64,000 bases of DNA from contig DASVAL010000028.1 in assembly GCA_036376355.1 (NCBI GenBank), positions 19,402-83,401 on the forward strand, read 5' to 3'. The first letter of the stretch is position 1; every line of letters starts with the position of its first letter. The notes under the pieces are model-generated. The model did no database searches. It was not told the DNA's origin and saw only the letters and a list, made by a program, of their open reading frames with translations. The translations under genes and the position numbers were made by a program. This DNA is from Planctomycetota bacterium. GTDB lineage: Bacteria; Planctomycetota; UBA1135; UBA2386. This document shows, in pieces, positions 4,353-52,152 of this stretch.

Positions 4353-4566
4353 GACGCGCGAGAACGCCGCGGGCGCCGTGCCGATGCGTCGTGCCGCGCG
4401 CCGCAGCACGCCCGCGTTCCGGCGCGGTTGCCGCTGGCCTCGTGCCGCGATGAGCGGTTGCGCATCGATCCGGTCGCGTCCCGCGCCGTGAGTGCGAGAG
4501 CGACGCGCACGCAGTGACGACCGCGCGCGCCGCGTGAGCTTCGCGGACCGGAGTTGTCACCGCGAT

Positions 4567-4584
4567 TGTCGATCCGGATCGACA
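4567..4584. repeat. 18-bp perfect palindrome TGTCGATCCGGATCGACA in the intergenic region upstream of beta-helix lipoprotein A
   Basis: Read directly: tgtcgatccggatcgaca equals its own reverse complement. Confidence 0.6.
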
Positions 4585-4845
4585 GCAAGCTCACGCGCAC
4601 GCACATTGCGCAGCGTGCACCACGCACTGTCCGTCGGCGCGAAAATATGTTCGATCCGCCGAGCCACGCATCGAACACCGGCTCGTAGGGACGCGTCTAT
4701 GCCTAGGGTGTTCACCTTAGATCTCAGCCAGGCCATCACCCGAGAGCGTTGCCGGGGTTTCACCCGAGCGAAGCTCGCGCCGAGAGACCTGCCACCCGTC
4801 ATGTCCCCCAGCACGCCGGTCGCCTGTCCGGCACGAGTCCCCAAG

Positions 4846-28816: not shown

Positions 28817-29794
28817 TCACGCGCCGGCGCCCGACGCGGCGCGGCTGTGCCGCCGCCACGTCGCGGGCGGCATGCCGAACTCGCGCTTGAACGCGCGATT
28901 GAACGCCGCCTCCGACTCGTAGCCGACGTCGTCGGCGATGCGCAGGATCGGCTCGTTGCCCTGCTTCAGCGCGCGCGCCGCGAGCGCGAGCCTCCAGCGC
29001 GTCAGGTACTGCATCGGCGGCTCGCCGATCAGCAGCGCGAAGCGTTCGGCCAGCGCCGAGCGCGAGATGCCGGCCTCGCGGCCCAGCTCGTCGACGGTCC
29101 ACGGCCTTCCCGGGTTGCCGTGCAGCAGCTGCAGTGCACGGCTGACCTGCGGATCGCGCAGGCCCGCGAGCCAGCTCCGCTGGTCCTCGGGAATCGACTC
29201 GATGTGGCAGCGCACGGCCTCGACGAACAGCAGCTCCGACAGTTTCGCGAGCACCGCGTCGGTGCCCGCGCGCGGCGCACGCGACTCCTCGGCCGCGTGC
29301 TGCAGCGTGCTGACCAGCCACGACGCACCGGCCCGCCCGCTGAACGACACGCGCAGCATGCCTGGCAGCGCGCCGAGCATCGGCCGGCAGAGCCGGCTGT
29401 CGCAGGCCATGAACCCGCAGACGAGCCGCGTGCGCGCGCCGCCGCCGCCGTGCGTGATGCGGGCCGGGCCTCCCTGCGGCGACGGTTGCACGAGCGTCTC
29501 GGCACCGATCGGCTCACGCGACACGTCGCTGCCGAGCATGTGCCCATCGCCGTGCGGGAACATGATCAGGTCGCCGGCCGCGAGCTCGACCGGCGGGCCG
29601 TCCGGCAGCCGCGCGCGGCACGCACCTTCGACGACGAGGTGATAGATCGCGACGTGCTCGGCGCTCGGCAGGATGTGCAGCACGTCGTCCTTGCCGGGCG
29701 CGGAGTCGATGCACCAAGGCGCGGTGAACTCGGCCTCGAGGAAGATCCCGCTCTCGAGCCGCAGCGCCTTCAACACCTCCGAGAAAGCGTCCAT
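28817..29794 (-). CDS. AraC-family transcriptional regulator with N-terminal cupin domain
   Basis: C-terminal HTH_18: WTVDELGREAGISRSALAERFAL...YLTRWRLALAARAL...ILRIADDVGYESEAAFNRAFKREFG. The N-terminal cupin carries GDLIMFPHGDGH. Confidence 0.8.
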   Translation of the reverse strand: MDAFSEVLKALRLESGIFLEAEFTAPWCIDSAPGKDDVLHILPSAEHVAIYHLVVEGACRARLPDGPPVELAAGDLIMFPHGDGHMLGSDVSREPIGAETLVQPSPQGGPARITHGGGGARTRLVCGFMACDSRLCRPMLGALPGMLRVSFSGRAGASWLVSTLQHAAEESRAPRAGTDAVLAKLSELLFVEAVRCHIESIPEDQRSWLAGLRDPQVSRALQLLHGNPGRPWTVDELGREAGISRSALAERFALLIGEPPMQYLTRWRLALAARALKQGNEPILRIADDVGYESEAAFNRAFKREFGMPPATWRRHSRAASGAGA

Positions 29795-31442: not shown

Positions 31443-32558
31443 CTACGACTCCGGTGCTGCAAGCATCGAGCGCACCTGCTCACCGAGGTTGCCCGGCGCG
31501 AACACGAAGCTCGCCTTCGCGCCGCGCAGGATCGACTCGAGAGCCTCGAGTTCCTTCATGCGCAACAGCACCGGGTTCTCGGCCAGCAGCTTCGCGGTGT
31601 TGGCCTGGCTCCGTGCCGCCGCGGTCTCCTCGCGACGCCGGATCAGGTTGGCCTCCGCCTGCTTCTGTGCCTCGATGACCTGGTTCAGGATCGTCTTCAT
31701 GTCGCCCGGCAGCACGACGTCGCGGATGCCGACGCCGGTGACCGACGCACCGTACTCGCCGGCCCGCCGTGCCACCGTCGCCCGCACCTCGTCGGCCACC
31801 GCGTCCTTCGACGTCAGCAACGTCTCGAGATCGCGCGCACCGACCGACGCCCGCAGCGCGAGCTGCGCCTCGCGGTAGACCGCCGTGGCCGCGTTCTCGA
31901 CCAGCGTGGTCGCCGCCACCGGGTCGGTGACCTTCCAGGTCACGACCAGGTTGAGGCGCAACGTCACCTTGTCGGCGGTCATGATCTCCTGACCGGCGAC
32001 GTCGGCGACCTGCTCGCGCAGCTCGACGGCCTGCCAGCCGATCGACGCGGCCCGGTTCCAGAACGCATGGCGTCCGGCACCGAGGTCGGCGATCAACTCG
32101 CCGCCGCGACGCACGAGCAGCCGCTGGTGCGACTGCACGTCGACGCTGGACAAGAAGGCACGCGCCGCGGGATGCGACAGCACCGCGTTGAGCCGGGGAT
32201 GCTCGAAGCGGACGTCGCTCTCGCGGAACGTCTCGATGTTCAGCGCGAACGGCTTCTGCCAGTACGCGTGCCGGCCGGGCCCGATGACCTCGAACAGGCG
32301 GTCGTCGCGCCAGACCAGCGCGCGCTGGTCCTCGGCCAGGTTCACGACCAGGAGCCGCTCGCGCACCGCGGCATCCTGGACGAGGACGTCCAGGAGCCGG
32401 TGCTCGAAACGCGTCTCCAGCGTGTTGACGAGGATCAGCTTGTCGGTGCCGGTCAGGGTGCGGGGAACGAACCAGTCGCCGGGACCGAGCAGGCGATGGA
32501 AGTCGCCGCGCCGGAACAGGAGACCGACCTCGTGTTGCTTCACGTGCTTGCGGATCAT
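31443..32558 (-). CDS. SPFH/band-7 domain protein (slipin-like)
   Basis: TADKVTLRLNLVVTWKVTDP...LTSKDAVADEVRATV...ASVTGVGIRDVVLPGDMKTILNQVIEAQKQAEANLIRRREETAAARSQAN is an SPFH core with a flotillin-like tail. Confidence 0.75.
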   Translation of the reverse strand: MIRKHVKQHEVGLLFRRGDFHRLLGPGDWFVPRTLTGTDKLILVNTLETRFEHRLLDVLVQDAAVRERLLVVNLAEDQRALVWRDDRLFEVIGPGRHAYWQKPFALNIETFRESDVRFEHPRLNAVLSHPAARAFLSSVDVQSHQRLLVRRGGELIADLGAGRHAFWNRAASIGWQAVELREQVADVAGQEIMTADKVTLRLNLVVTWKVTDPVAATTLVENAATAVYREAQLALRASVGARDLETLLTSKDAVADEVRATVARRAGEYGASVTGVGIRDVVLPGDMKTILNQVIEAQKQAEANLIRRREETAAARSQANTAKLLAENPVLLRMKELEALESILRGAKASFVFAPGNLGEQVRSMLAAPES

Positions 32559-36156: not shown

Positions 36157-36480
36157 TCAGTGCGGCAAGAGGGCGAAGCGCCCGTAGGCGACGAACGCCA
36201 CGAGCACCGCCATCACGATGCTCCAGACCAGCGGGGTCGTCGCGGTGCCCTTGCGCGAGTAGGGCGCATAACCGCGGCGGGCACCAGCGTCTCTAGCGTG
36301 AGCGCGGCGGCCGCGAGCGTGGTCACGGCCGGGACGACCAGCAGGATCCCCCCCACGATCTCGAGCACGCCGATTACGCGCCAGCCGCCGCGCGGGAGCG
36401 CGGTCATCGCTCCTGCCGGCAGAGTCGGTTGCGAAGACCGGGGCCGGCGTCGATGCTCTCGGCGCAATCCCATGAATCCC
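36157..36480 (-). pseudogene. DoxX-like membrane protein remnant, apparent frameshift between two ORF frames
   Basis: Frame A: WRVIGVLEIVGGILLVVPAVTTLAAAALTLETLVPAAVM (DoxX-like TM pair), then a stop. Frame B continues with TM LVWSIVMAVLVAFVAYGRFALLPH. The two frames meet near 36270. Confidence 0.3.
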
Positions 36481-39400
36481 GAACACGCCGGGGCCGACTC
36501 GCAACTCGACAGACCGGACCGCATCGGTCCATATCGCATCCTCGATACGCTGGGCGAGGGAGGCATGGGCATCGTCTACCTCGCAGAGCAAGAACACCCG
36601 GTGGTTCGCCGCGTAGCGCTGAAGCTCATCAAGCTCGGCATGGACACGAAGTCAGTCGTCGCGCGCTTCGCGCAGGAGCGTCAGGCCCTTGCGCTGATGG
36701 ACCACGAGGGAATCGCAAAAGTCTACGACTGCGGCGCGAACGAGCGTGGTCAACCCTACTTCGCAATGGAACTGGTAAAAGGCACTCCCCTCGACCAGTT
36801 CTGTGAGCAGCAGCGCCTTTCCCTCGGTGACCGACTCCGACTGCTGCAGCAGGTGTGCGCTGCCGTGCAACACGCACACCACAAGGGCGTCGTGCACCGC
36901 GACCTCAAGCCCAGCAACGTACTCGTCTGTGACGACGGCGGCAGGCAGCAGATCAAGATCATCGACTTCGGGCTCGCCAAGGCAATGGGCCCGAAGCTGG
37001 TCGAGGCGACGCTGTTCACGGAGGCCGGGCAAGTGATCGGCACACCCGAGTACATGGCGCCTGAACAAGCCGATCCTACCAATCACGACATCGACACCCG
37101 CGCCGATGTCTATTCGTTGGGAGTGATCCTCTATCAGTCCCTGGTCGGCGACCTTCCATTTCCAGCCCGCGAATTGCGGCGTGCGGGCCTGCTCGAGATG
37201 CAGCGTATTCTGCGCGAAATCGATCCGCCCAAGCCGAGCACGAAGATCACCTCGCTCGGCAACTGCGGTCTCGAGCTTGCGAGAGCCCGGCGAGTCAGCC
37301 TCGGGGCTCTGAAGAAGGCGCTGCGCAGCGATCTCGACTGGGTCGTGCTGAAGGCACTCGAAAAGGAGCGCAATCGCCGCTACGAGACTGCAAACGCGTT
37401 GTCTGCTGACTTGCAGCGCTTCCTCGACCACGAACCGCTGCTGGCAGGACCGCCCAGCGCCGGCTATCGCGTGCGGAAGCTGCTGCGACGTCATCGCGGT
37501 CAGGTGCTCGCGGCGGCTACGGTCCTGCTGACTGCCCTCGGTGGTACGGCCGTGGCCCTGCAATACGCGGAGAGAGCCACCGAGAACGCCGTCGCGGCGC
37601 GTCAGCGCGCAGACGACCTGGAGAGGGTGGTTGCCTTCCAGGCCGCGCAAATGACGAACATCGATCCGCAAGCCATCGGCGCGATACTGCGGACATCGGT
37701 CGTCGAGGCACGGCCTGAGGACCGCGAATCGGTCGAAGCGGCATTGACCGGAGTCAACTTCACCGACGTCGCCTTGGCTGGGCTGCGAGAGGGAGTCTTC
37801 GCGCCGACGCTCCACGCAATCGCCAAGAACTTCGATGAAAAGCCCCTGATCAAGGCCAGCCTGCTACAGGCGGTTGCCGACGCGCTGATGCACCTCGGCC
37901 TGCTCGACCTGGCAGGCAAGGCGCAGGACGAGGTCGTAGCGATACGCAGAGGCCTCCTCGGCAACGCCTCTCGCGAGACACTCCAGTCGATCTTCGCGGC
38001 GGGCGTGCTCATCGAGAAGAGTGGCGACCTCGCAAGGGCCGAGCCATTCTTCGAAGAGGCGTTGGCCGGGTGCAGGACGCTCTTTGGTGCGGATGACAAG
38101 GACACCTTGGCGGCCCTCAATGGGATGGGTTACCTCCGCATGGCGCAGGGCAGGCCGGCCGATGCCGAGGCCTGCTTCGCGGAGGCTATCGCGGGCAGGC
38201 GCCGCGCTTTGGGCCCCGAGGATGGCGACACGCTCGTCTCCATCAACAACATGGGATTCCTGCTCCACACGCTCGGCCGGCACAGAGAAGCGGAGCCGTA
38301 CTACCGCGAGGCACTGCGTATCCGGAATGACGACGCGACGAGGCTGAACACCATGAACAACCTCGGCTGTCTCCTCGGGCAAACGGGCCGCGAGGAGGAA
38401 GGCGAGAACATGTTGCGCGATGTACTCGACCAACGACGCGCCTTGCAGGGCACCAATCACTCTGACGCCCTGCGGGCAATCGCCAACCTGGGTCGCACGT
38501 TGTTGGAGCGCAACAAGGCAAGGGAGGCTGCATCGTTGCTCCAAGAGCACGTCAGTACACGGCGCCGTCTCTTCGGCAGTGACGATGGAGAGGCGTCAGC
38601 CCATCTCGACAACCTGGCCCTCGCATACCTTCGCCTCGAGGACTTCCACCTGGCCGAGTCGACGCTGCGCGAATGCCTGGCCCTGGCGCAGCGTTCTCGT
38701 GACGACGCACGCATGTGCGCCACCCTGTGCAACCTGGGGCATGCCGTCCTGATGATCGGCAAGATGGACGAGGCTGTGTCGTTGCTCGAGCAGGCGTTGG
38801 AGTTCGACAAGCGCCTCGGATACAGCGACAAAGGTGAGAACCATGCACTGTTCGTGAATCTCGGCGATGCAGCAGCGCGTCAGGGCAATGCCGAGAAGGC
38901 GATCGGATACTACCGGGAAGCACATCGGCGGTGCCTGGCGTCGCTGGGGCCTGATGATCCGGAAACCCTGCTGAGAACTCACAACTTCGCCTACTTCCTG
39001 AAGGAGCACGGCTCGCTGCAGGACGCAGAGGCCCTGTTTGCCGACGCTGTCACTTGCGGCCGTCGCGTCCTCGGGGAGGCTCACCCGGACTTCTTGACGA
39101 TCTTGGCCAGCTTTGCAGATCTGCGAACGAAGCAGGACAACCTAGCGGAGGCTGAAGTTCTTCTTCGTGAACTCGTGACGGGGAGACGTCGCCTCCTTGG
39201 CAACGACCATGTGGATACGGTTTCCACCATTGCTGAACTCGGAAACGTTCTGAGTTGGCGCGAGCAGTATCAAGAGGCTGAAGCGCTGTGCCGCGAAGTC
39301 GTTGCCGGCCGCACTCGTTCGCACGGGGAAGACGACGAAGCGACACTCACCGCACTGCACGACCTGGGTGCCTTGCTGTACCGCGCGGACAAGGTCGAGG

Positions 39401-40101
39401 AGGCTCATCGAGTCTTCACCGAGCTGCTGGCCCGAACGCGAAGAGCCTTCGGGAACGACTGCCTCGAGCTTCCGGATCGGTTGCTATGGACCGGCCTGCT
39501 CCTCATGACTCGCGAGCAACTGTCGGAGGCCGAGCCGCTGTTCCGCGAGGGTCTGGAACGCTCGCGAAAGCTGCCTGGCACTGACTCCCGGACAACCCAA
39601 ACGGCACTCACACATCTCTGCCGACTGCTGCATGCGCAGTCGAGGTTCGAAGAGGCCGTGCCGCTTGCAGAAGAGCTCCACAGCATTCTCACTGCCTCGT
39701 TGGGAAAGGAACACGAGGAGACGCTCGACGCAGGTCGTGCTCTGGGAGTGCTGCTCGTACGGGTCAGAAGGCCGAATGACGCACTGCAGCTCCTGGAGCA
39801 ACTCGAGCCATGCTGGCGAAGAAGTGCCCGCCCCGACTTGGCCATGTTCCTCGTGACACTGGGCAATGCCCATTCGGGGCTTGCTACTTCTTCCTCGCTG
39901 AAGCGCGCCGAAGCGTGCCTCGTCGAGGCACGCGGAATCCTGTTGAAGTCAGGTGAGACCTCCGCTGACGAGCGCCAGCGATGCGCGGACGCCTTCGTGA
40001 CGCTCTACGAGTGCTGGCATCGCGTGGAGCCCGGTGCCGCACGCGATCGCGACCTCACGCTGTGGCAGGAGCGGTTGCGCGCATCGAGATTGGACGAGTA
40101 G
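36472..40101 (+). CDS. Ser/Thr protein kinase with a long C-terminal TPR-repeat array (1209 aa)
   Basis: YRILDTLGEGGMGIVYLAEQ, VALKLIK, HRDLKPSNVLV, DFGLAKA, GTPEYMAPEQ are Hanks kinase subdomains. Then a TM, then >12 TPR units (LNNLGxLLxxxGRxEEAExxxRxAL-like). Confidence 0.85.
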   Translation: MNPEHAGADSQLDRPDRIGPYRILDTLGEGGMGIVYLAEQEHPVVRRVALKLIKLGMDTKSVVARFAQERQALALMDHEGIAKVYDCGANERGQPYFAMELVKGTPLDQFCEQQRLSLGDRLRLLQQVCAAVQHAHHKGVVHRDLKPSNVLVCDDGGRQQIKIIDFGLAKAMGPKLVEATLFTEAGQVIGTPEYMAPEQADPTNHDIDTRADVYSLGVILYQSLVGDLPFPARELRRAGLLEMQRILREIDPPKPSTKITSLGNCGLELARARRVSLGALKKALRSDLDWVVLKALEKERNRRYETANALSADLQRFLDHEPLLAGPPSAGYRVRKLLRRHRGQVLAAATVLLTALGGTAVALQYAERATENAVAARQRADDLERVVAFQAAQMTNIDPQAIGAILRTSVVEARPEDRESVEAALTGVNFTDVALAGLREGVFAPTLHAIAKNFDEKPLIKASLLQAVADALMHLGLLDLAGKAQDEVVAIRRGLLGNASRETLQSIFAAGVLIEKSGDLARAEPFFEEALAGCRTLFGADDKDTLAALNGMGYLRMAQGRPADAEACFAEAIAGRRRALGPEDGDTLVSINNMGFLLHTLGRHREAEPYYREALRIRNDDATRLNTMNNLGCLLGQTGREEEGENMLRDVLDQRRALQGTNHSDALRAIANLGRTLLERNKAREAASLLQEHVSTRRRLFGSDDGEASAHLDNLALAYLRLEDFHLAESTLRECLALAQRSRDDARMCATLCNLGHAVLMIGKMDEAVSLLEQALEFDKRLGYSDKGENHALFVNLGDAAARQGNAEKAIGYYREAHRRCLASLGPDDPETLLRTHNFAYFLKEHGSLQDAEALFADAVTCGRRVLGEAHPDFLTILASFADLRTKQDNLAEAEVLLRELVTGRRRLLGNDHVDTVSTIAELGNVLSWREQYQEAEALCREVVAGRTRSHGEDDEATLTALHDLGALLYRADKVEEAHRVFTELLARTRRAFGNDCLELPDRLLWTGLLLMTREQLSEAEPLFREGLERSRKLPGTDSRTTQTALTHLCRLLHAQSRFEEAVPLAEELHSILTASLGKEHEETLDAGRALGVLLVRVRRPNDALQLLEQLEPCWRRSARPDLAMFLVTLGNAHSGLATSSSLKRAEACLVEARGILLKSGETSADERQRCADAFVTLYECWHRVEPGAARDRDLTLWQERLRASRLDE

Positions 40102-40141: not shown

Positions 40142-41269
40142 CTACTCGAGACTCTCGAGGATGCGCAGGTACGAACCGTACCGCAGCTCGCTGATGCGAC
40201 CGGCCGCGACCGCGGCGCGCACGGCGCACTCGGGCTCCTCACGGTGCCGGCAGTCGGCGAACCGGCAGCGCCCCGCCGCCGCGAACTCGTTGAACCCCGC
40301 GCGCACGTCCTCGACGCGCAGTCGCTCCAAACCGAGCGAACGGATCCCCGGCGTGTCGATGATCCGCGTGCCGTCCGCGAGCCGCCGCAGGCTCGACCAC
40401 GACGTCGTATGGCGGCCCTTGCCGTCGCCGCGCACGTCGCCGACCGCGCGAGCGCCGTCCGGATCGAGCCCGTTCAACAGCGACGACTTGCCGACGCCCG
40501 AGTGGCCGACGAACACGCAGACCTTGCCGGCCAGATGCGCACGCAGCGGCTCGAGCCCCGCCCGTGTCGCGGCCGAGCACACGAACACGGGAACCTGCAT
40601 CGCGACGTAGGGCGCGACGACGCGCTCGACCGCGGCGGCATCGACTGCGAGGTCGGCCTTGTTCACGCAGATCGCGGGCAGGACACCGCTGCCGTCGAGC
40701 GCCAGGAGGAAGCGATCGATCAGACCCGGCCGCAGCGGCGGGTCGGCGACCGCGGCCGTGATGACGGCCACGTCGACGTTCGCGGCCAGCACGAGGTCGC
40801 GATGCACGTTGCCCGGATCGGGGCGGCGCAACGAGCTTCGCCGCGGCAACACGGCCTCGATGCGCGCGGGGCCCTCGGTCGCGGTGAAGGCGACCTCGTC
40901 GCCCACGGCGAGGTGGAACTCGGGGTCGAGGAACAGTCGGTGCGCGAGGCGCGCCGACTCGCCGTTGTCGAGGTCGACGCGGCCGTGATGCACCGCCGCG
41001 ACGATGGCGCGCGGCAGGCCGTCGACGCGCACCGCCGTGGACGCAGCCGGCGCGGACCGCTGCGCACGCCGCGACATCTTCTCGAACGCGACCTCGTCCG
41101 CGTCTTCGTCCAACTGCCGGCCGGGCCGGCGCCGTCCGTGCGGGCGCGCCGCACGCCTCGCCTTCGATTCCTGCTTGCGCCGCTGCTCTTCCTCACGATC
41201 GATCAGATGCCGCATCTGCCGCGCGGCCCGTTCGAGCATGCGCGCCTTGTCCTGCTCACTGCCTGCCAT
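40142..41269 (-). CDS. rsgA: Ribosome small-subunit-dependent GTPase A
   Basis: Circularly permuted GTPase: VCVNKADL (G4) precedes FVGHSGVGKSSLLN (G1) and DTPGI (G3). C-terminal zinc knuckle CRFADCRHREEPEC. Basic N-terminal extension. Confidence 0.8.
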   Translation of the reverse strand: MAGSEQDKARMLERAARQMRHLIDREEEQRRKQESKARRAARPHGRRRPGRQLDEDADEVAFEKMSRRAQRSAPAASTAVRVDGLPRAIVAAVHHGRVDLDNGESARLAHRLFLDPEFHLAVGDEVAFTATEGPARIEAVLPRRSSLRRPDPGNVHRDLVLAANVDVAVITAAVADPPLRPGLIDRFLLALDGSGVLPAICVNKADLAVDAAAVERVVAPYVAMQVPVFVCSAATRAGLEPLRAHLAGKVCVFVGHSGVGKSSLLNGLDPDGARAVGDVRGDGKGRHTTSWSSLRRLADGTRIIDTPGIRSLGLERLRVEDVRAGFNEFAAAGRCRFADCRHREEPECAVRAAVAAGRISELRYGSYLRILESLE

Positions 41270-41460
41270 GGGAACACTCCGTCTCGGGAACCTGGGGATC
41301 GACCAAGCCCGCACACGGTCCCTGCGCTCGATCGAGCGCGGACTGGCGGGCACACGGGATTGCCGGTCGCAACAGCGACCGGCAGGTTCTCAGGCGGCGG
41401 CGGAGTGGATCACCGCGCGGCAACGTAGCGCGCCGAGCGAGCCGGGCAAGGCCCGGGCAC

Positions 41461-43245
41461 TCACATACCGAGCGTGAGCTTCAGGCCGTTCGATACGATC
41501 GCCGGGAACGGCGCCGGCACCAGCACCGGCAGTACGAAGGCCTGCGCGAAGATCTCGAGGCCCATGAGCCCGGGGTTGTTCGGGATGCCGAGCGCGGCGT
41601 TGCCCGTCGGAGGCGCCGCCGGGAACGACAGGATCGAGGAGCCAGTCGGATCGATGTAGGCCATGCAACCGAACGGGAAGCCGATGATGCCGAGGTCGAC
41701 CCCGGTCGGCAGTTGGCCGAAGCTCAGCGCCATGAACCCGAAGATCGCCCCGGCCGGCACTTCCGTGACCGCCATCGTGAACACGCTGTTGAGCTGCGGC
41801 GAACTGCCGGTCGCGGCATCGAGGTCGAGCGGGACGGCGCCGGCGACGCCGACCGGGAGCCCGGGCACCGAGGCCGAGAGGTCGACGCTGCCAGGGTCCG
41901 CGGCATTGTTGCCCTCGGTGAAGCCGACGACCGTGATCTCGCTCGTGGTCGGATTCTGCGGATCGAGGCTCCCGTAGCTGAACTCGATGTCCCCGCTCGG
42001 GTACAGCTTGACCTGGAATGTGTTCCCCGGGGCCGGGGGAATCTGCAGCGGGAAGTTCGGCACGCCGACCCACGTCGCCATCGCGAAGCTCGGCGTCGTG
42101 TCCCAGTAGATCGCGCCGCCACCCGGCGCGTAGAGGTCGCGCCAGAACGGGGCGATGCGCGAGTCCTCCGTCAGGAAGTCGTCGATCACCGGGAAGTAGC
42201 TCGAGTACGGATTGCTGGCACCCCACAGGTAGCCATTCGAGGACAGATCGACCGTCGTGATCGTTGTTCCCGCGAACGGGAACGTGAAGCCGAGCGCGAG
42301 GCCCTGGTGGATCGAGTCGTCCATCACGCCCGGGATCGCGTTCAGGTAGCCGTTGTCGAAGCCGCCACCGGGCACGGCGACGTAGCCCGTGCCGATGTTG
42401 ATGAAGCGCACGCTGGAGTTCGCGAGGTCGACGTTGTTGACGAATGCCTCGTAGACCGTGCCGTTGCGCGGGCAGCCGGTGCCGTACTTCGCGGTCCTCG
42501 CCTGGCGGCACCCAGGTCGTTCGAAGATCAGGTAGCCGCCGGTACCGTTCGGGATGAACTCGAAGCTGCGGCCGCCGATGTCGTACGTGGACGGGCTGAG
42601 CGGGTCGAACATCTCGTAGGCCGTGGGGTTCGTGCCCGTGTTCACGGGACCACCCAACAGCGACATGAAGTTGATCGGGTTCGCAGTGGCGTTGTTGCCC
42701 TGCGTCACGCCGACGAGCGCAATGTGGCCCGTGTTCGGGTCGATGCCGTTGTTGACGTCGTGCCAGATCACGATCTCACCGGTGCTGAGCATCTGGATCT
42801 GGACCGTCTCGATCGGCACACCACCGTACTCGGGCACCTTGTACCAGGTGACGACTCCGCGACTCGGCGAGGTGCCGGTGCCAGGGATCGCATTGAAGAA
42901 CACGCCCTCGACCACGGGCGCCGCACCCGGAGGATAGAAGTCCATCCACATCGCGGCGATGCTCGCAGGATCGGCCAGGAACTGCTGTTCGTCGGCGCTG
43001 CAGCAGCGGTGGTCCGTGCTCGACGCCATCCAGACGAAGCCGTTCGAAGAGACCCAGACCTGGGTCGTGGGTCCGCCGGGCCCCGGGAACGTGAAGCCGA
43101 GTGACTGCGCTGGCGAGACCTGGTCGTCGAGCAGATTCAGGTTCGTGCCGAGGCTCGTTTCGAAGCAGGGTGCATTGGCCACCTGGGCGATGGCCGGCGC
43201 ATGGAGAAGGATCGCAGCCGCAATCGAGAAGCGGAGCAATTGCAT
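41461..43245 (-). CDS. Secreted protein with two NIDO-like (nidogen-like) domains, paralog A
   Basis: GGAGGT RBS and a signal peptide. NIDO-like blocks repeat twice: LGFTFP(G/F)xG...(V/L)SSNG(F/Y)(V/L)W, (R)IAPFWRDLYAPGGG, VTW..VP and NTFQVKLYPSGDIEFSYG. Confidence 0.65.
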   Translation of the reverse strand: MQLLRFSIAAAILLHAPAIAQVANAPCFETSLGTNLNLLDDQVSPAQSLGFTFPGPGGPTTQVWVSSNGFVWMASSTDHRCCSADEQQFLADPASIAAMWMDFYPPGAAPVVEGVFFNAIPGTGTSPSRGVVTWYKVPEYGGVPIETVQIQMLSTGEIVIWHDVNNGIDPNTGHIALVGVTQGNNATANPINFMSLLGGPVNTGTNPTAYEMFDPLSPSTYDIGGRSFEFIPNGTGGYLIFERPGCRQARTAKYGTGCPRNGTVYEAFVNNVDLANSSVRFINIGTGYVAVPGGGFDNGYLNAIPGVMDDSIHQGLALGFTFPFAGTTITTVDLSSNGYLWGASNPYSSYFPVIDDFLTEDSRIAPFWRDLYAPGGGAIYWDTTPSFAMATWVGVPNFPLQIPPAPGNTFQVKLYPSGDIEFSYGSLDPQNPTTSEITVVGFTEGNNAADPGSVDLSASVPGLPVGVAGAVPLDLDAATGSSPQLNSVFTMAVTEVPAGAIFGFMALSFGQLPTGVDLGIIGFPFGCMAYIDPTGSSILSFPAAPPTGNAALGIPNNPGLMGLEIFAQAFVLPVLVPAPFPAIVSNGLKLTLGM

Positions 43246-43410
43246 GGGATGTACCTCCGGACGAGGGTGGAGAGGTGCTGGACATTTCCTGCCCAGCAGT
43301 CGGCATTGTCGCGCCGGGTGGTGCTTGCACAATGTCTCGTCGCCCGATCGCGAGGCTCTTGCGCGCGAGAGCAACGAACGTCGCCCCCGCTTGCCCTAGC
43401 ATCCACGCAC

Positions 43411-45054
43411 ATGAACGCCGCGCGGGCCATCCGTGACTACCACGAGCGGACGCAGCACCACCGGCATCGCTTCGCCGCTGCCCTGGGTTACCTCGATTGG
43501 GCAACGCAGCCAGACCCGTATCGCCGTTACGAAGGAAGTGCACGCCAGCAGCTGCCGCTGGCGGCTCCAGACGGCACGCCGCGCTATCCGGCGCTGTTCG
43601 CGCCACCGGCGTCGACCGCGATCCGCGCGGCCGCCGTCGATGCAGCCTCGATCGGCCGGCTGTTCCAGGACAGCCTCGCGCTGTCGGCGTGGAAGCAGCA
43701 CGGCAACACACGCTGGGCGCTGCGCGTGAATCCGAGCAGCGGCAACCTGCACCCGACCGAAGCGTACTTGCTGACCGGTGCTTTGCCCGGCTTGTGTGCT
43801 GCGCCGATGCTGAGCCACTACGCGCCGGATGCTCACGCGCTCGAACGGCGCGCCGAGATCCCGCCGGCCCTGTGGCGATCGATCACCGCGGGCCTGCCCG
43901 AAGGCGCCGTGCTCGTCGGCTTGACCTCGATCGTGTGGCGCGAGTCCTGGAAGTACGGCGAACGTGCGTACCGCTACTGCATGCAGGACCTCGGCCACGC
44001 GATCGGCGCGCTCGGCTTTGCGGCCAGGGCACTCGGTTGGAGCACGGCGCTGCTGCACGTGCCCGACGCCGAACTGGCCGTGCTGCTCGGCATCGACGAC
44101 CAACGCGGCCCGGAGGCCGAGCATCCCGACGCGTTGCTCGTGGTGCACCGCGACGCCGATCCCGCGTCGCCGTGGGCGCGCGCGTTCGCCCTCGGCCAGG
44201 ACGACGTGAAGGCGCTCGGCGCGCTGCATCGCCACGGCAGGCCAGCCGTGCTGAGCCGCGATCACCACGACTGGCCGGTGATCGACGAGGCGATCGCCGC
44301 GACGCGCCTGCTGGTGAAGCCACCGGCACAGTTGTGGGATCACCTGCCCGCGCCGCATGGCCCCACGCCACCAGCACCCGATGCCGACAGCCGTGCCTTG
44401 TTCCACCAGCGGCGCAGCGCGGTCGCGATGGACGGGCGGACCGGCAGCGACGCGGAGAGCTTCTGTGCTTCGCTGCAACGCGCCGTCGATCCTGGTTCGC
44501 CGCCGTTGCAGCCGCTGCCGTGGCGCGGCCGCGTGCACCTGCTGCTCTTCGTGCACCGCATCGCGGGTCTCGAGCCGGGGCTCTACTGCCTCGTGCGCGG
44601 CGGCCAGGACCCGCAGTGGTTGCGCGCGCGCATGCGGCCCGAGTTCGTCTGGGAGCGACCGGACAGCGTCGCGGACGGGCTGCCGCTGTTCCTGCTGCTG
44701 CCGATCGACTGCCGCGAGGCAGCGCGCACGGTCAGCTGCGGCCAGGCGATCGCCGCCGATTCGGCGTTCGCGGTCGCGATGCTCGCCGAGTTCGCGCCGG
44801 CGCTCGATGCGATCGGGCCGTGGGGCTGGCGTTTGCTGCACTGGGAAGCCGGCGCGATCGGGCAGCTGCTCTACCTCGAGGCCGAGGCCAGCGGCCTGCG
44901 CGCGACCGGCATCGGCTGCTTCTTCGACTCGGCCGTGCACGACCTGCTCGGCATCGCGAGCGACGACCTGCGCACGATCTACCACTTCACGACCGGTGGC
45001 GCGGTCGAGGACGGACGCCTGCAGTCGCTGCCGCCGTACGGCGGGCGCCGCTGA
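43411..45054 (+). CDS. SagB/ThcOx-type dehydrogenase (tandem nitroreductase-like domains), stand-alone
   Basis: N-terminal AIRDYHERTQHHRHRF (YHExTKH-like SagB signature), PYRRY...P, two nitroreductase-fold halves. The second half carries ALFHQRRSAVAMDGR and GCFFDSAVHDLLG. Confidence 0.65.
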   Translation: MNAARAIRDYHERTQHHRHRFAAALGYLDWATQPDPYRRYEGSARQQLPLAAPDGTPRYPALFAPPASTAIRAAAVDAASIGRLFQDSLALSAWKQHGNTRWALRVNPSSGNLHPTEAYLLTGALPGLCAAPMLSHYAPDAHALERRAEIPPALWRSITAGLPEGAVLVGLTSIVWRESWKYGERAYRYCMQDLGHAIGALGFAARALGWSTALLHVPDAELAVLLGIDDQRGPEAEHPDALLVVHRDADPASPWARAFALGQDDVKALGALHRHGRPAVLSRDHHDWPVIDEAIAATRLLVKPPAQLWDHLPAPHGPTPPAPDADSRALFHQRRSAVAMDGRTGSDAESFCASLQRAVDPGSPPLQPLPWRGRVHLLLFVHRIAGLEPGLYCLVRGGQDPQWLRARMRPEFVWERPDSVADGLPLFLLLPIDCREAARTVSCGQAIAADSAFAVAMLAEFAPALDAIGPWGWRLLHWEAGAIGQLLYLEAEASGLRATGIGCFFDSAVHDLLGIASDDLRTIYHFTTGGAVEDGRLQSLPPYGGRR

Positions 45055-45072
45055 GCACGTCGCTGCGCGGCC

Positions 45073-46116
45073 CTACCCGACGCCCCACACGGGCCGCAGC
45101 AGCCACGCCTCGATGCGCGTCTCGACCTCGGTCCAGTGCCGCTTGTATTCCATCGCGGGTCCCATGTCGTAGCGCACGACTCCTTCCTCGGCCAACCATC
45201 GCACCTTCTCGACCTGCAGCAGGTTCCCGATCCCGAGGCCGCTCCAGTCCTCCGCATAGCTGAACTGCTGGCCGCGATACACGCCGCCGGCGAGCCCGCC
45301 GAAGATGAAGCCCACGTCCTGCTCGCCGCACCGCGCGAACATCACGCGCCCGTCCCGCGACACCGCGAGCCGCCGCAGCATGCGCGCGTAGAACTCCTTC
45401 GACGGCATCTCGGCCATGCCGCACCTGCCGAGGCCCTTCCAGCTCTTCTGCTCGACGGCGACCATGCGCGCATAGACCGCGTCCGCCTCGCCAGCGCTCG
45501 CGGGTGCACAGCGTTCGTAGTGGACCCCACTCTGCGAAGCCTTGCGCGCGGCGCTCTTGAGGTTGCGCCGCAGCCGCCCGCTGCGCCGCGAGAGGAAGCC
45601 ATCGAGCCCACCCTCGAGCGAGGCGCTGCACAACCTCGCGCCTTCGGCGACGCCGACTTCGAACCGCGTACGACACACCTGCACGAGGCTTCGCGCCAGC
45701 TGGCCGCCTGGCAGCACGCCGCTGACCAGCACGCACGGCAGCTTGCGTTCCGCGGCCAGCTCCTTGCGCAAGAACAGGTCGAGCAGGTGCACGGCGTTCG
45801 GACCGAGCAGCGGGCAGCCGAACAACCAGCCCGCCTCGACCGGTTCGAGCACGGGCCCGAGCCTCGGATCGAGTTCCTCCGAGAACGCGATCACGCTGCC
45901 GGCCCCTTCGCAGAGGTGCAGCGGCCGGCTCGGACAGAAGACTTCGTGGAACGACAGCTGCCACTGCGTGCCGCAGCAGAACGGATCAGCCTGCACGGTC
46001 CGCGCCGCGGCGCGGTTCCACGCCGAACCCGGTTCGTCGAGCTCGGCGGCGCTGCAGCGGCGCATCACGGCGCGCGGTCCCAGCTGCTGTCCAAAGATCT
46101 TCACGGCCCGGGCCAT
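45073..46116 (-). CDS. GNAT-fold acyltransferase, CelD/BioF2-like (second copy)
   Basis: C-terminal FIFGGLAGGVYRGQQFSYAEDWSGLGIGNLLQVEKVRWLAEEGVVRYDMGPAMEYKRHWTE parallels ...LDLGRGDDEYKRHFATH of the 10561 gene. Confidence 0.6.
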   Translation of the reverse strand: MARAVKIFGQQLGPRAVMRRCSAAELDEPGSAWNRAAARTVQADPFCCGTQWQLSFHEVFCPSRPLHLCEGAGSVIAFSEELDPRLGPVLEPVEAGWLFGCPLLGPNAVHLLDLFLRKELAAERKLPCVLVSGVLPGGQLARSLVQVCRTRFEVGVAEGARLCSASLEGGLDGFLSRRSGRLRRNLKSAARKASQSGVHYERCAPASAGEADAVYARMVAVEQKSWKGLGRCGMAEMPSKEFYARMLRRLAVSRDGRVMFARCGEQDVGFIFGGLAGGVYRGQQFSYAEDWSGLGIGNLLQVEKVRWLAEEGVVRYDMGPAMEYKRHWTEVETRIEAWLLRPVWGVG

Positions 46117-46354
46117 CTTGGCGACTCAGCTCGCAGTGCGCCAGTTCCCCCGGCGCACCAGCGCGCCAGCGCACCGGCGTCTCGCGGGCACGCGGCCGCG
46201 CCGGCCCCGAGCCACCGGGGGTTGACGCTCGACGCCGATGCTGGCTGCGATCCGCCTCGAGCGCGTTCGGGAAACGGCACGCGGCCTGCTCCGCCGTTCC
46301 ACTTCCGGCAATCCCTTCGGCCGCAGACCAAGGGTGCCACTGCGCGCTACGATC

Positions 46355-46370
46355 TGGCAAGCGAGTTGCA
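46355..46370 (+). promoter_or_regulatory. Candidate sigma54 (-24/-12) promoter upstream of the PAS histidine kinase
   Basis: TGGCAA-GCGAG-TTGCAT has exact GG-N10-GC spacing and a near-consensus TGGCAC-N5-TTGCA. It lies ~27 nt upstream of the TTG start at 46398. Confidence 0.45.
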
Positions 46371-46397
46371 TGGTGGCTCGCGATCCCCAGAAGCACC

Positions 46398-48652
46398 TTG
46401 AACCCCGACGTCCCCCAGGCCCACCCGGCCGCCCGCTGCGCAGCTGCCGACTTCCAGTCCCTCGCCGAGACACTGTCGTCGCTGATCGCCCTGATCCGCG
46501 GCACCAAGATCATCTACGCGAACCCCGCGGCCTGTGCGCTGATCGGCCGCCCGAAGGAGTGGTTCATCGACCGCGACTTCTGGGAGGTCGTGCACCCCGA
46601 CGACCGCGAGACCGCGATCGCCCGCGGGAAAGCGCGGGCCGCCGGCATCGCGCAGCAAAAGCGCATCCGCGAACGGCTCCTGCACGCCGACGGTCACGTG
46701 ATCTGGATGGACTACTCGATCGACGTCGTGATGTTCGAGGGTCAGCCGACGACGCTGTGCACGGGCCACGACGTCACCGAGCAGCGGCGCATCGAGGAGC
46801 AGCTCGCGCGCAGCGAGGCACGGCTCGCCGAGGCGCAACGCATCGGCAGCATCGGCAGCTGGGAATGGGACGTCCCGGGCGACAAGGTCACCTGGTCGGA
46901 CGAGATGGTCCGCATCTACGGCACCGGCCCGTGCGAGTTCGGCTCCTCGCTGCAGGACTACCTCGAGCTCGTGCACCCGGAGGACCGCGAGCTGGCGCGC
47001 ACCAGGATGGAACAGGCGCTGCGGCGCGGCGGCCCGTTCGCATTCGAGCATCGGATCGTGCGGGCCGACGGCCAGGTGCGCACGATCTCGGGCCGCGGCG
47101 AAGTGTTCCGCGACGCGTCGGGCGCGCCGGTCCGCGCCGCCGGCACGGGCCAGGACATCAGCGAGAAGCGGCGCATGGAGCGCGAGCTGCAGCAGAGCGA
47201 GGAGCGGTTCCGCAACCTGTGCCTGCAGGCGCCCGTGATGCTGATGTCGTTCGATCCCGAGGGACGCGTGCGCGACGTCAGCAACTTCTGGCTGCAGACC
47301 ACGGGCTACGCGCGGCACGAGGTCATCGGACAGCTCGGCTTCGGCTTCATCACGCCCGACTCGCGCGAGCGGCTGGAGCGCGCGATCGAGGAGAACCGGC
47401 GCCACAACGAGGTCGTGATCCGCAACATGCCGTTGCGCGGCATCTGCAAGGACGGCAGCACGATCGACCTGCTGAGCACGAGCGTGGCCGAGGTAGACGA
47501 CGCCGGCGAGCAGCGCGGCGCGATCTGCGTGCAGATCAACCTGACCGACCTGCAGCGCGCCGAGCAGGCGCTGCAGGAGAGCGCCGAACGCTACCGCGCG
47601 CTCGTCGAGCACGCGCCCGAGGCGATCATGGTCCTCGACGTCGAGCTCGACCGCTTCGTCGACGCGAACGAACGCGCCGAGAAGCTGTTCGGCTACTCGC
47701 GCGAGCGGCTGCTCACGATGGGTCCGCTGGACTTCTGCCCCGAGCGCCAAGCCGACCGCCGCGCCTCGTGCGAGGTCGTCGAGTGCGAGCACAACAAGGT
47801 GCTCGCCGGCGGCACCGCGGTCTTCGAGTTCACGCACGTCGACGCGGCCGGCCGCGAGATCGTCTGCCAGACGCAGTTGACGCGGCTGCCGGCCGCGGGG
47901 CGCCAGCTGATCCGCGCCACGATCACGGACATCACCGAGCTCAAGCAGCTGCAGGAGAAGGTCCGGCACGCCGAGAAGCTCGCGGCCGTCGGCGTCCTGG
48001 CCGCGGGCGTCGCCCACGAGATCGGCAACCCGCTGATGGCGCTGTCGATGGCGGCCCAGAGCCTCGAGCGTCGCACCGGCGACGCTTACACGCAGAACAA
48101 GCTGTCGCTGATCCGCGAGCACATCGACCGCATCTCGCGCATCGTGCGCCAGATGAGCGACCTCGCGCGCCCGCCGAACGGCCGCCGCGCCGACCACGAC
48201 CTGAACCGGATCGTTCGCCGCGCCGTCGAGATGGTGCGCTACGACAAGCGCGCGAGGAACGCCGAGATCGACTACCAGCTCGCCGAGCGCCTGCCGTCGG
48301 TCGAACTCGTCGAGGACGAGTTGACGCAGGTCTGCATCAACCTCGCGCTGAACGCGTTCGACGCGATGGCCGACAATCCGCCCGAACGGCCCCGGCGCCT
48401 GACGATCCACTCGATCGCCGCCCCCGGGATGCTGCGCCTGACGTTCCAGGACACCGGCCCCGGCGTGCCGCACGGCGTGCGCTCGCGGTTGTTCCAACCG
48501 TTCTTCACGACGAAGGACGTCGGCCAGGGCAGCGGCCTCGGCCTCTCGGTCAGCTACCGCATCCTGCAGGAGCACGACGGCAGGCTCGCGCTCGACGAGA
48601 GCGTGACCGAGGGCGCTGCGTTCGTGCTCGAGCTCCCGATCGGGGTGCGCTC

Positions 48653-48656
<4 letters not shown>
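46398..48656 (+). CDS. Multi-PAS sensor histidine kinase (soluble; >=4 PAS/PAC + HisKA + HATPase_c)
   Basis: Repeated PAS/PAC blocks (e.g. GSWEWDVPGDKVTWSDEMVRIYG; HRIVRADGQVRTISGRGEVFRDASGAPVRAAGTGQDISEKR). H-box VAHEIGNPLMAL. G-boxes DTGPGV, GQGSGLGLS. TTG start; no TM segments. Confidence 0.8.
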
Positions 48657-50026
<1,370 letters not shown>

Positions 50027-50064
50027 CCGCGCAGCACGGTGCCGGTCGAGCGCAAGGTCGCCAA

Positions 50065-50126
50065 GTGCTCGAGGCCGGCGTAACTTCGCTGTATCGCAAG
50101 CATCGGCGACCGGCCGGGAACGCAAG
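50065..50126 (+). repeat. Degenerate (~80% identical) direct copy of the last ~60 nt of the NtrC-family gene (HTH-coding 3' end), immediately downstream of its stop
   Basis: 49957-50013 ...ctcgggctcggcgtgacttcgctgtaccgcaagctcggcactgcgaccgcgaacgc vs 50065-50126 ...ctcgaggccggcgtaacttcgctgtatcgcaagcatcggcgaccggccgggaacgc. Confidence 0.5.
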
Positions 50127-50213
50127 ATGGGCGCCTTGCTCCGACCCGCAGCGCGGGAAGCGTCTGCAGTCGAAGCATCGTCCTCTCTCGTCAACCACTC
50201 GGACAAGGAACCC

Positions 50214-51944
50214 ATGCAACGCTCCTCCTCGCTGCTTCTGGCCGTGGCGCTCGCCACCACGGCGACCGCGCAGCTCACCCTCGTCACGCCGAACGGCTAC
50301 GCGAACACCGTCGGCAACTCGAACAACATCTACCCCTGGGGGCGCGACACGGCGAGCATGCGCATCCAGTTCCTGATCGACAGCTCGCACTTCACGAACC
50401 AGGGCGTCTCGAGCCCGATCACCATCCAGCAACTGCGCTACCGTCCCTGGGCCGGCTCCGTGACCTCGTGGTCCGGCGGTACGTGGCCGAGCGTGCGCAT
50501 CGACATGGCGACGAGCCCGCAAGACTGGGCTCTGGCGAGCACGGTGTTCGCCAACAATCTCGGTCCGGACCTCACGACGGTGCTCAACGGACCGGTCACC
50601 ATGAATGGCGGGTCGACCCTCGGCCCCGGCGTCGTGGTTCCCTGGTACATCACGATCCCGCTGACGACGCCCTTCCTCTACGACCCGACGTCGGGCAACG
50701 ACCTGACCATCGACATCTACCTCAACGGCGCAGGCTGGTCCGGCACTAGCCGCGGAGCGGACTTCGTGCAGGGCACGCCCGGCACGGGCGCCGCGGGCGG
50801 CTGCCGCGTCTACGACACGTCGGGAATCACGGGGTCATCGGGCACCATCACCACTGCCTACGCCCCGATCACCGAGTTCACCTACGTGCCCGCCGCGGGT
50901 TATGCGAGTGCAGCACCGTACGGCACCGGCTGCATCAACGTGCCCGACGTCTCCACGTACGAGCTCTTCGGCACGTCGGCCGCGTTCGACCTCGACAACA
51001 CGTCGATGTCCCTCGTGCCCACGGGCACCGGCTATCTCGCGGTCCCCGGCCTCACGAGCTTCGTGCCGCCCTCGGGCACGGCGACGACGCTGTCGCTGGG
51101 TGACGACACGGAGACGACGGTGACGCTGTCTGCTCCGATGCCGATCGGCTCGACGTCGACCACGCAGCTGACGGTCTGCTCGAACGGCTTCGTCTCCGCC
51201 GGCACCGGCAACGGGACCGCCTACACGCCGGATCCCACGGTGTTCCTGAACGGCCCGCGAGCATGGTGGAGCCTCGTCTGGCACGACTTGAACCCCGCCA
51301 TTGTGGGCAGCGGCCAGGTCAAGTTCGAAGAAGTCGGCGGCGTCGCGTACGTTACGTGGGATGGCGTCTGGGACTATGGCGGAACCTCTGTTGCGAACGC
51401 GAACACGTTCCAGGCCCAGTTCGACATCGCCACTGGCTTGGTGCACTACGTCTGGCAAACGGTGAGCAACTCCGGCAACGGCATCCTGACGGGCATCTCG
51501 AACGCCGGTCCTTCGCCGAACCCGGGCAGCATGGACATCTCGGCCGCGCTGCCGTCGACCTACATCGCCTCCACGTTCGCGACCCTGCCGCTGGCCCTCG
51601 CTTCGAGCGCCCGCCCCGTGATCGGCACGTCGATCTCGCTCAATTCGACGCAGGTGCCACCGGCTGGCTTGGTCGGCCTGCAGATCCTCGGCCTGACCGA
51701 GTTCACGGCCGGCATCGACCTGACCTTCCTCGGCATGCCGGGGTGCAACCTCCACACCACGCTCGACGCGACGGCAACGTTCTTCCCCGTGGGTGGCACG
51801 GGCAGCTCTCCCTTCGCCATTCCGGGCCTGCCGGCGCTGGCGGGCACGGTGATCAGGACGCAGTCGGCCGTGTGGGTCCCGGGCATCAACGCTTTCGGCT
51901 TCATCACGTCGAACGGCGTGCGGCTGACCCTGGACATGAATTGA
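50214..51944 (+). CDS. Secreted protein with NIDO-like (nidogen-like) domains, paralog B
   Basis: AAGGAA RBS and a signal peptide (LLLAVALATTATAQ). The second repeat TQLTVCSNGFVSAG...AWWSLVWHDLNPAIVGSGQVKFEE...VAYVTWDGVWDYGG...NTFQAQFDIATGLVHYVWQTV matches the NIDO block order. The C-terminal ...LTLDMN parallels ...LTLGM of paralog A. Confidence 0.65.
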   Translation: MQRSSSLLLAVALATTATAQLTLVTPNGYANTVGNSNNIYPWGRDTASMRIQFLIDSSHFTNQGVSSPITIQQLRYRPWAGSVTSWSGGTWPSVRIDMATSPQDWALASTVFANNLGPDLTTVLNGPVTMNGGSTLGPGVVVPWYITIPLTTPFLYDPTSGNDLTIDIYLNGAGWSGTSRGADFVQGTPGTGAAGGCRVYDTSGITGSSGTITTAYAPITEFTYVPAAGYASAAPYGTGCINVPDVSTYELFGTSAAFDLDNTSMSLVPTGTGYLAVPGLTSFVPPSGTATTLSLGDDTETTVTLSAPMPIGSTSTTQLTVCSNGFVSAGTGNGTAYTPDPTVFLNGPRAWWSLVWHDLNPAIVGSGQVKFEEVGGVAYVTWDGVWDYGGTSVANANTFQAQFDIATGLVHYVWQTVSNSGNGILTGISNAGPSPNPGSMDISAALPSTYIASTFATLPLALASSARPVIGTSISLNSTQVPPAGLVGLQILGLTEFTAGIDLTFLGMPGCNLHTTLDATATFFPVGGTGSSPFAIPGLPALAGTVIRTQSAVWVPGINAFGFITSNGVRLTLDMN

Positions 51945-52152
51945 GCCGCGCCCGCCGATGGGACCTGCGCGCGGCGCCCCGTGAAGGCGCCGCTGCAGGA
52001 CCCGCCCGCGCCGCGGCCGGGCACGCGGTAATGGCGTTCCGGGCCGCGAACACGCGCAGGCCCCCCCGTTCCGGATCCGGTGCGGAATCACGGGGCCGGG
52101 TGTGGCAGATGGCTTGCGCCCGGCACGGCACACGCCTTGCTCTCGGTACGGC

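Follow-up and report, generated by a model that had tools for sequence, protein, structure and literature searches.

In animals, the NIDO domain (PF06119) is an extracellular all-beta module of ~160 aa, found in nidogen-1/2 (G1), alpha-tectorin, MUC4, SNED1, and Mesh, and combined with AMOP, VWD, or EGF modules. To our knowledge, it has no established biochemical activity in animals or bacteria. Strictly C-terminal modules are known from the type IX secretion system (T9SS) of Bacteroidota, whose cargo proteins carry a Sec signal and diverse heads including proteases, followed by a beta-sandwich adaptor and a C-terminal beta-sandwich, as in the catalytic-IgSF-C-terminal domain (CTD) arrangement of RgpB, with dozens of cargo genes per genome. 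Here we describe two genes, A and B, which lie in a 64,000-nt stretch of the Planctomycetota metagenome-assembled genome (MAG) GCA_036376355.1 (contig DASVAL010000028.1, positions 19,402 to 83,401; hereafter, the window; G+C ~70%), and whose products carry NIDO-like units together with a common CTD. We lean towards the reading that A and B are two ordinary representatives of a very large family, confined to uncultured Planctomycetota, of modular all-beta proteins exported by the Sec route, in which the CTD would serve as a targeting or attachment tail.

Gene A (41461..43245, minus strand) and gene B (50214..51944, plus strand) were both found where an earlier note on this DNA had placed them, and their products are 100% identical to the NCBI proteins VF384_03785 (P0001, 594 aa) and VF384_03810 (P0076, 576 aa), both called from this MAG. 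Shine-Dalgarno-like sequences, GGAGG and AAGGAA, precede the ATG codons of genes A and B. BLASTP aligned residues 244-594 of A with residues 226-575 of B over ~360 residues at 28% identity (E 2e-23), and the A-family and B-family alignments matched each other with E 1e-74 in hhalign. The two proteins are paralogous, as the earlier note had proposed, although the ~30-40% identity that it gave holds at its low end only, the measured values being 28-33%. What the note had overlooked is that A and B share a C-terminal domain of ~125-130 residues (A 462-594 versus B 449-576, hhalign E 1e-41). Furthermore, the NIDO-like units were compared with each other. Unit 1 of A (24-200) matched its unit 2 (296-458) with hhalign E 1e-52 (BLASTP 32% identity, E 2e-21), and by this comparison the head of A is a second NIDO-like unit, which arose by internal duplication. 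Unit 2 of A also matched the unit of B (284-446) with E 2.3e-44, and unit 1 of A matched it with E 1.6e-30. The N-terminal beta domain of B (BNT, residues 20-228), by contrast, scored less than 1% probability when compared with the NIDO-like units in hhalign and is therefore unrelated to them. Thus, the tandem NIDO-like domains described in the earlier note for both proteins are present in A, whereas B has BNT and one unit.

Protein A consists of a signal peptide, unit 1, two short beta modules, the YGTGC motif, unit 2, and the CTD, and its AlphaFold2 (AF2) model is all-beta (predicted local distance difference test score, pLDDT, 91.6; predicted template modelling score, pTM, 0.82). As read from the translation, the signal peptide comprises residues 1-20 with an AIA/Q site (43186..43245, minus), the signal-peptide-like N-terminus being MQLLRFSIAAAILLHAPAIA followed by Q; residues 2-20 form a low-confidence N-terminal helix in the model. 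Anchoring of A as a lipoprotein through Cys27 was considered and rejected, since NAPC does not qualify as a lipobox. NIDO-like unit 1 (residues 24-200; 42646..43176, minus) contains the motifs LLDD, SSNGFVW, a vicinal CC, IAAMWMD, VTWYKVPEYGG, and VQIQ. It is followed by a short beta module (YEMF..YDIGGRSFEFIPNGTGGYLIFE) with a linker to the cassette (residues 201-253; 42487..42645, minus), for which the model has strands at 209-213, 227-232, 238-242, and 250-254. The YGTGC motif (residues 254-258; 42472..42486, minus), of which G257 and C258 are invariant in the family alignment A1, marks where the C-terminal cassette begins. Residues 259-458 (41872..42471, minus) comprise a prelude (YEAF..DLAN..IGTGY) followed by NIDO-like unit 2, with the motifs MDD, FTFPFAG, SSNGYLW, IAPFWRDL, GGG, ATWVGVPNF, and NTFQVKL. 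The CTD body (residues 462-594; 41464..41862, minus) has GFPFGC, IPNNPGLMG, a Q, and SNGLKLTLGM at its end, and the protein finishes with ...AIVSNGLKLTLGM, a predicted beta-strand.

Protein B has a signal peptide, BNT, YGTGC, one NIDO-like unit, and the CTD, and its AF2 model is again all-beta (pLDDT 91.3, pTM 0.55). The signal peptide, also read from the translation, covers residues 1-19 with an ATA/Q site (50214..50270, plus) and reads MQRSSSLLLAVALATTATA followed by Q; the model has an N-terminal helix of low pLDDT at residues 3-13. The signal peptides that the earlier note had assigned to both proteins were thus recovered by sequence reading, each with a predicted site of the AxA/Q type, and a crude rule found a signal-peptide-like N-terminus in ~80% of the full-length relatives. 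BNT (50271..50897, plus) is not NIDO-like, and proteins with PKD domains carry the same N-terminal domain at 76% identity. The YGTGC motif of B (residues 236-240; 50919..50933, plus) aligns with that of A, and its G237 and C240 are invariant in the family alignment A2. The prelude (YELF..FDLDN..TGTGY) and the single NIDO-like unit follow at residues 241-446 (50934..51551, plus), with the motifs GDD, VCSNGFVS, WSLVWHDL, GSG, YVTWDGVWDYGG, and NTFQAQF. The CTD body (residues 449-576; 51558..51941, plus) contains GMPGC, IPGLPALAG, a Q, and SNGVRLTLDMN at its end, and B likewise finishes with a predicted beta-strand, ...ITSNGVRLTLDMN.

We then examined the CTD, which had no match in Pfam or NCBIfam (E<=1 for A and B) or in PDB. 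A search of 1.84 billion cluster representatives with a CTD profile yielded 10,386 matches at E<=1e-3 and 3,838 at E<=1e-10. Among the 150 best matches listed, in proteins of 117-1046 aa, all of the CTDs end 0-5 aa from the C-terminus, and 329 of the 361 collected proteins end within 3 aa of the end of the CTD model; the last strand, SNGxxLxLG, stands 0-3 residues from the stop codon. The heads that precede the CTD include subtilase S8, a trypsin-like peptidase with GBD_T9SS_assoc, a beta-propeller, Kelch, and PKD. When the CTD alignment was used in a separate homology search, just 38 short proteins (83-221 aa) came back, which are apparently fragments and gave no architectures.

Where a protein lacks a NIDO-like unit, the CTD is preceded at a distance of 5-12 aa by a (Y/F)GxGC motif. 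In A and B, the NIDO-like unit with its YExF..DLxN..GxGY prelude is inserted between YGTGC and the CTD body. Of 344 sequences, 343 keep the CTD cysteine (GMPGC), and GxGC is kept in 285 of 323, most of the exceptions being short proteins that are probably truncated fragments. The conserved C-terminal cassette consists of (Y/F)GxGC, usually one NIDO-like unit, and a beta-sandwich CTD of ~125 aa. The cysteines of YGxGC and GMPGC probably form a disulfide, and the cassette probably has a nested-domain arrangement. When architectures were counted in the 122 top CTD representatives starting with Met, at least one NIDO-like unit was present in 92, of which 45 have another, unrecognised head, 19 are of the B type, and 10 have the A-type tandem. 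The view that bacterial NIDO proteins are rare, expressed in the earlier note, has therefore to be given up, since within this Planctomycetota lineage ~75% of these top representatives carry NIDO-like units, most of which Pfam misses.

The family was also followed across genomes in a scan that took one genome per species. This gave 77 loci, nearly all from uncultured Planctomycetota MAGs, with one contig labelled Planctomycetota_UBA2386. The family is massively expanded, in this one lineage only. The MAG studied here has at least 7 paralogues, and arrays of 2-5 tandem CTD genes are common (e.g. L040, L042, L045, L051, L072, and L076). In one locus (L006, 7497-14846), a B-type gene is followed by two PKD-type genes with matching head and tail and then by a gene for a Kelch protein. 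The tandem arrays and this gene set suggest birth-and-death evolution and domain shuffling.

Next to these architectural data stands the question of whether the unit is related to NIDO. The order of the NIDO motifs that the earlier note had seen in the proteins is indeed present. A search with the Pfam NIDO model, a check that the note had recommended, agreed with this for A, though marginally, and not for B. Protein A reached E 8e-6 and 26.4 bits (gathering cut-off 25), in a match limited to residues 335-384, or profile positions 6-53 of 186; B had no match at E<=1, and NCBIfam returned nothing for either protein. The relatives of A gave a broader picture. Among the 75 that were detectable, all of them from uncultured Planctomycetota, 60 were aligned, and 39 of these matched PF06119 at E<=0.01 (best 3.1e-10); separate members matched separate stretches of the profile in the correct order. 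The best-covering relative (P0009) reached 40.2 bits over profile positions 3-151 of 186 with its counterpart of A unit 1. In the B family, just 4 of 62 members matched PF06119 at E<=0.1 (best 0.005). We also compared a profile of 25 bacterial units with the N-terminus of human nidogen-1, a sequence that itself matches Pfam NIDO with 207 bits over profile positions 2-186. The hhalign comparison gave E 2e-4 with a probability of only 45%, and 105 collinear columns, in which GDD..SNG..APFxxDLD..G.VYY..VTW..V.PY..NTFQ are aligned. In addition, an M36 fungalysin-type peptidase from a metagenome (P0073, 1017 aa), which has no CTD, carries a NIDO-like unit between its propeptide and catalytic domain. 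This unit is 36% identical to unit 2 of A and has a canonical IAPFWHDL, and ahead of it lies an FDL..L.PN..GGY stretch that resembles the 201-253 module of A. The Reg_prop (PF07494) matches of 9 of the 60 A-family members were dismissed as noise of short repeats at SNGF(V)WLG.

From these comparisons, the A-family units appear to be real but distant homologues of NIDO, and the membership of B would be transitive, through the homology of its unit to those of A (E 2.3e-44). The NIDO interpretation of the earlier note is thus upheld as distant homology and corrected as to the tandem in B. No other fold family gave a confident match. Like metazoan NIDO, the bacterial units are all-beta modules of ~160 aa with a predicted extracellular location, and they share with it the motif order GDD, (S/T)NG, APFWxDxD-type WxD, GG, VTW..V..Y, and NTFQ, at very low identity, with most units below the Pfam threshold. 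Unlike metazoan NIDO, many of the bacterial units have a vicinal CC, and they have the YExF..DLxN..PxGxGY prelude; moreover, they are nested in a C-terminal domain, whereas the metazoan domain is combined with other modules. A literature search returned nothing relevant on bacterial NIDO proteins, on this lineage, or on a C-terminal sorting domain in Planctomycetota. Single NIDO-like units without the CTD/YGxGC cassette were also detected by a hidden Markov model of the unit in three giant open reading frames (ORFs) of 'Kiloniellaceae' MAGs: L077 735-5993 (>=1,753 aa), L079 9221-19873 (3,551 aa), and L082 7772-14365 (>=2,198 aa). These are probably large adhesin-like proteins of another phylum, which share the unit with the present family and differ from it in having one unit in a very long protein.

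As for the CTD, the layout of the proteins is that of T9SS cargo in the points named at the outset, and one CTD relative carries a GBD_T9SS_assoc domain. Nevertheless, the likeness is an analogy of layout and does not amount to membership, because no T9SS model matches: the T9SS CTD models (TIGR04183 / Por_Secre_tail) had no match to A or B in the Pfam and NCBIfam searches at E<=1. The CTD described here is also longer than that of T9SS (~125 aa) and has motifs of its own, YGxGC, GMPGC, IPNxPxLxG, and SNG..L.LG. No T9SS components were present among the annotated genes of the 64-kb window, in which no search was aimed at SprA/Sov, PorV, or PorU, and we know of no T9SS in Planctomycetota. A lineage-restricted C-terminal tag on paralogous exported proteins is likewise found in the PEP-CTERM/exosortase, LPXTG/sortase, and GlyGly-CTERM/rhombosortase systems. 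Signals of the PEP-CTERM type are composed of a short motif, a transmembrane helix, and a basic tail, whereas A and B end in a beta-strand and have neither a hydrophobic helix nor a basic tail. The sigma-54 activator encoded next to B resembles the PEP-CTERM-box regulator family but stays below its cut-off (399.8 versus 502.6 bits).

According to the reading that we favour, each protein would combine a variable head with the conserved C-terminal cassette. The signal peptide would provide passage across the cytoplasmic membrane, the disulfide between the YGxGC and GMPGC cysteines would clamp the nested NIDO-like unit onto the CTD, and the CTD would serve for targeting or attachment, taking heads as diverse as binding domains, proteases, and propellers to the cell surface or out of the cell. 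The NIDO-like unit, with its invariant GDD, SNG, WxD, TW, and Q, may be a ligand-binding module or a structural adaptor, and a matrix or adhesion role of A and B is possible. In a further step, which we offer as a tentative suggestion with the chances rather against it, the cassette would tag cargo, or anchor it at the surface, for a lineage-specific sorting or secretion route that has not been described, with many cargoes per genome, A and B included; these cargoes would comprise proteases, propellers, NIDO-like binders, and proteins of the PKD and Kelch types.

Several points weigh against the family-and-tail reading. A sorting or anchoring role of the CTD is argued by analogy, from its strict C-terminal position, the diverse heads, and the signal peptides. 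No candidate sorting machinery for the CTD was found, and around 78 related loci no neighbour gene recurred, any one family being present in at most 6 of them. The disulfide and the nesting are deduced from sequence, and all of the relatives come from uncultured MAGs. The relation to NIDO is distant, as reflected in the marginal and partial match of A, the lack of one for B, and the 45% hhalign probability with nidogen-1. Nothing similar to the proteins was found in PDB; when its sequences were searched with profiles of the A family and the CTD, the hits were at chance level only (P450 reductase and TssG; E 0.09-0.7). Finally, the synteny with the neighbouring two-component system is retained in two close relatives, and because of this, A and B may still be co-regulated in some other way, or transcription of the NtrC gene may read through into B.

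We weighed this reading against three others. The CTD could instead be a ligand-binding domain (lectin-like, or like a carbohydrate-binding module, CBM), an oligomerisation domain, or a transient pro-domain like the PPC domain of secreted proteases, with the proteins being binders or enzymes that are freely secreted by a general route. This would suit the C-terminal accessory domains that protease heads often have, the galactose-binding-like domain of one relative, and the lack of any dedicated machinery gene seen nearby. Yet CBM and Ig-like modules do not as a rule occur solely at the very end of a protein, whereas all of the 150 best representatives end at the CTD; besides, the extreme C-terminal strand is conserved, and an identical type of tail stands behind very different heads. 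We therefore judge this alternative unlikely. The NIDO likeness, for its part, could be due to chance or convergence, the unit being an unrelated beta-sandwich with the short motifs SNG, WxD, TW, and TFQ. Such a view could appeal to a Pfam match of A that is barely over the threshold and spans 48 of 186 profile positions, to the near-absence of matches in the B family, and to the modest nidogen-1 probability. It accords poorly with the independent PF06119 matches of 39 A-family members, several of them above the gathering score and reaching a maximum of 40.2 bits, with the ordered parts of the profile that separate members match, with a nidogen-1 alignment that is collinear and includes the GDD upstream of the Pfam model, and with the canonical IAPFWHDL of the M36 peptidase relative, and we regard it as improbable.

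The third alternative is that of the earlier note, in which A and B are a pair of secreted NIDO matrix or adhesion proteins, controlled by sigma-54 and coupled to exopolysaccharide (EPS) production. Between them lie genes for a PAS histidine kinase (HK, 46398-48656) and an NtrC-type sigma-54 activator (48653-50026). Gene B does lie directly downstream of the NtrC-type gene, as noted, on the same strand at a spacing of 187 nt and with no terminator-like site between. The gene order RsgA (40142-41353, minus), A, SagB-like, HK, NtrC, B, RND (efflux adaptor, pump, and outer-membrane factor, 52.1-57.9 kb) is retained in two close relatives, whose A and B orthologues show 71% and 79% identity, and one of these (L002) has kept a 19-nt block that lies upstream of B. 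These facts speak for a paired set, whereas the promoter data and the wider distribution point the other way. No GG-N10-GC element with <=4 mismatches to TGGCAC-N5-TTGCA was found upstream of A or B. The conserved -24/-12 elements belong to the HK and RND genes instead: TGGCAAGCGAGTTGCA (46355-46370, plus) is located 28 nt ahead of the HK gene start and CGGCACACGCCTTGCT (52126-52141, plus) just ahead of the RND adaptor gene, each with 1 mismatch, and both are identical in L002 (6169-6184 and 11835-11850); they lie in conserved islands of spacers that have otherwise diverged. Across the window, the total of such matches is not above chance (16 found versus 22 expected). Relatives at 41-60% identity no longer show the association; of the 77 loci, only 3 have a sigma-54 activator within 10 kb, and 1 has a related kinase. 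Given at least seven copies in each genome and many arrays, finding two of them within 9 kb is unremarkable. The EPS genes (about 6.7-27.6 kb) are more than 13 kb away from A, behind unrelated genes. Neither the sigma-54 link nor the EPS coupling finds support, and we give this alternative very little credence. The position of A and B on either side of the sigma-54 system is, on sequence grounds, best read as synteny of recent common descent and not as a regulatory unit. With the conserved -24/-12 elements placed ahead of the HK and RND adaptor genes, the two-component system most plausibly switches on the operon that encodes it and the RND efflux operon further downstream, and not A or B.

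The value of the locus would thus lie elsewhere than in the sigma-54 'bracketing' that singled it out, which is not meaningful; it is the unannotated family cassette that merits attention. The NIDO relatives form a large, confidently modelled bacterial family that can be used for structural and ligand studies and for tracing the origin of the domain. The CTD represents a large family with no match in PDB or in the copies of Pfam-A and NCBIfam that were searched. It behaves like a tail for sorting or anchoring, in a phylum where little is understood of how proteins cross the outer membrane, and it raises the question of which machinery recognises the tail. If the tail were recognised in annotation, thousands of Planctomycetota MAG proteins now called 'hypothetical' would be better described.

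Some further features of the regulatory regions were observed. At ~46261-46320 and ~52045-52085, 40-90 nt upstream of the two -24/-12 elements, there are conserved blocks with TTCCGG / CCGGAA-like half sites, which read GCGCGTTCGGGAAACGG..GTTCCA.TTCCGGCA and CGCGAACACGC..CCGTTCCGGAT.CGGT and could be binding sites of the activator. The 19-nt block upstream of B (~50148-50168) has the sequence GC(A/G)(G/A)CGCGGGAAGCGTCTGC and stands in a spacer that is otherwise poorly alignable with L002. Scans for sigma-70 promoters and terminators over 41.2-52.3 kb gave 0 promoters and 1 terminator-like site, which is below the shuffled expectation and uninformative.

The remaining neighbours were identified by Pfam and NCBIfam searches of the window proteins. 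The gene divergent from A, both here and in the close relatives, encodes a SagB-family dehydrogenase of 547 aa (43411-45054, plus), as the earlier note had recognised (TIGR03605, 81.1 bits versus a cut-off of 78.4); the protein has two nitroreductase-type stretches plus a dehydrogenase domain, and neither a cyclodehydratase nor a precursor gene was evident beside it. A GNAT gene (Pfam Acetyltransf_6; 45073-46116, minus) lies between the SagB-like and kinase genes and is missing from the two syntenic relatives (L001 and L002). Near the start of the window, two ORFs (1890-4352, plus, 820 aa; 4492-6519, plus, 675 aa) have a coding-like GC3 without a Pfam match, and neither a CTD nor a NIDO-like unit was found in them. 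The EPS cluster encodes a beta-helix protein, a polysaccharide deacetylase, a Wzx-type flippase, a GT4 glycosyltransferase, and an initiating sugar transferase. It is followed by genes for an AraC/cupin regulator (28817-29794) and a Band-7 protein (31443-32558), and a Ser/Thr kinase with TPR repeats is encoded at 36472-40101, ahead of RsgA.

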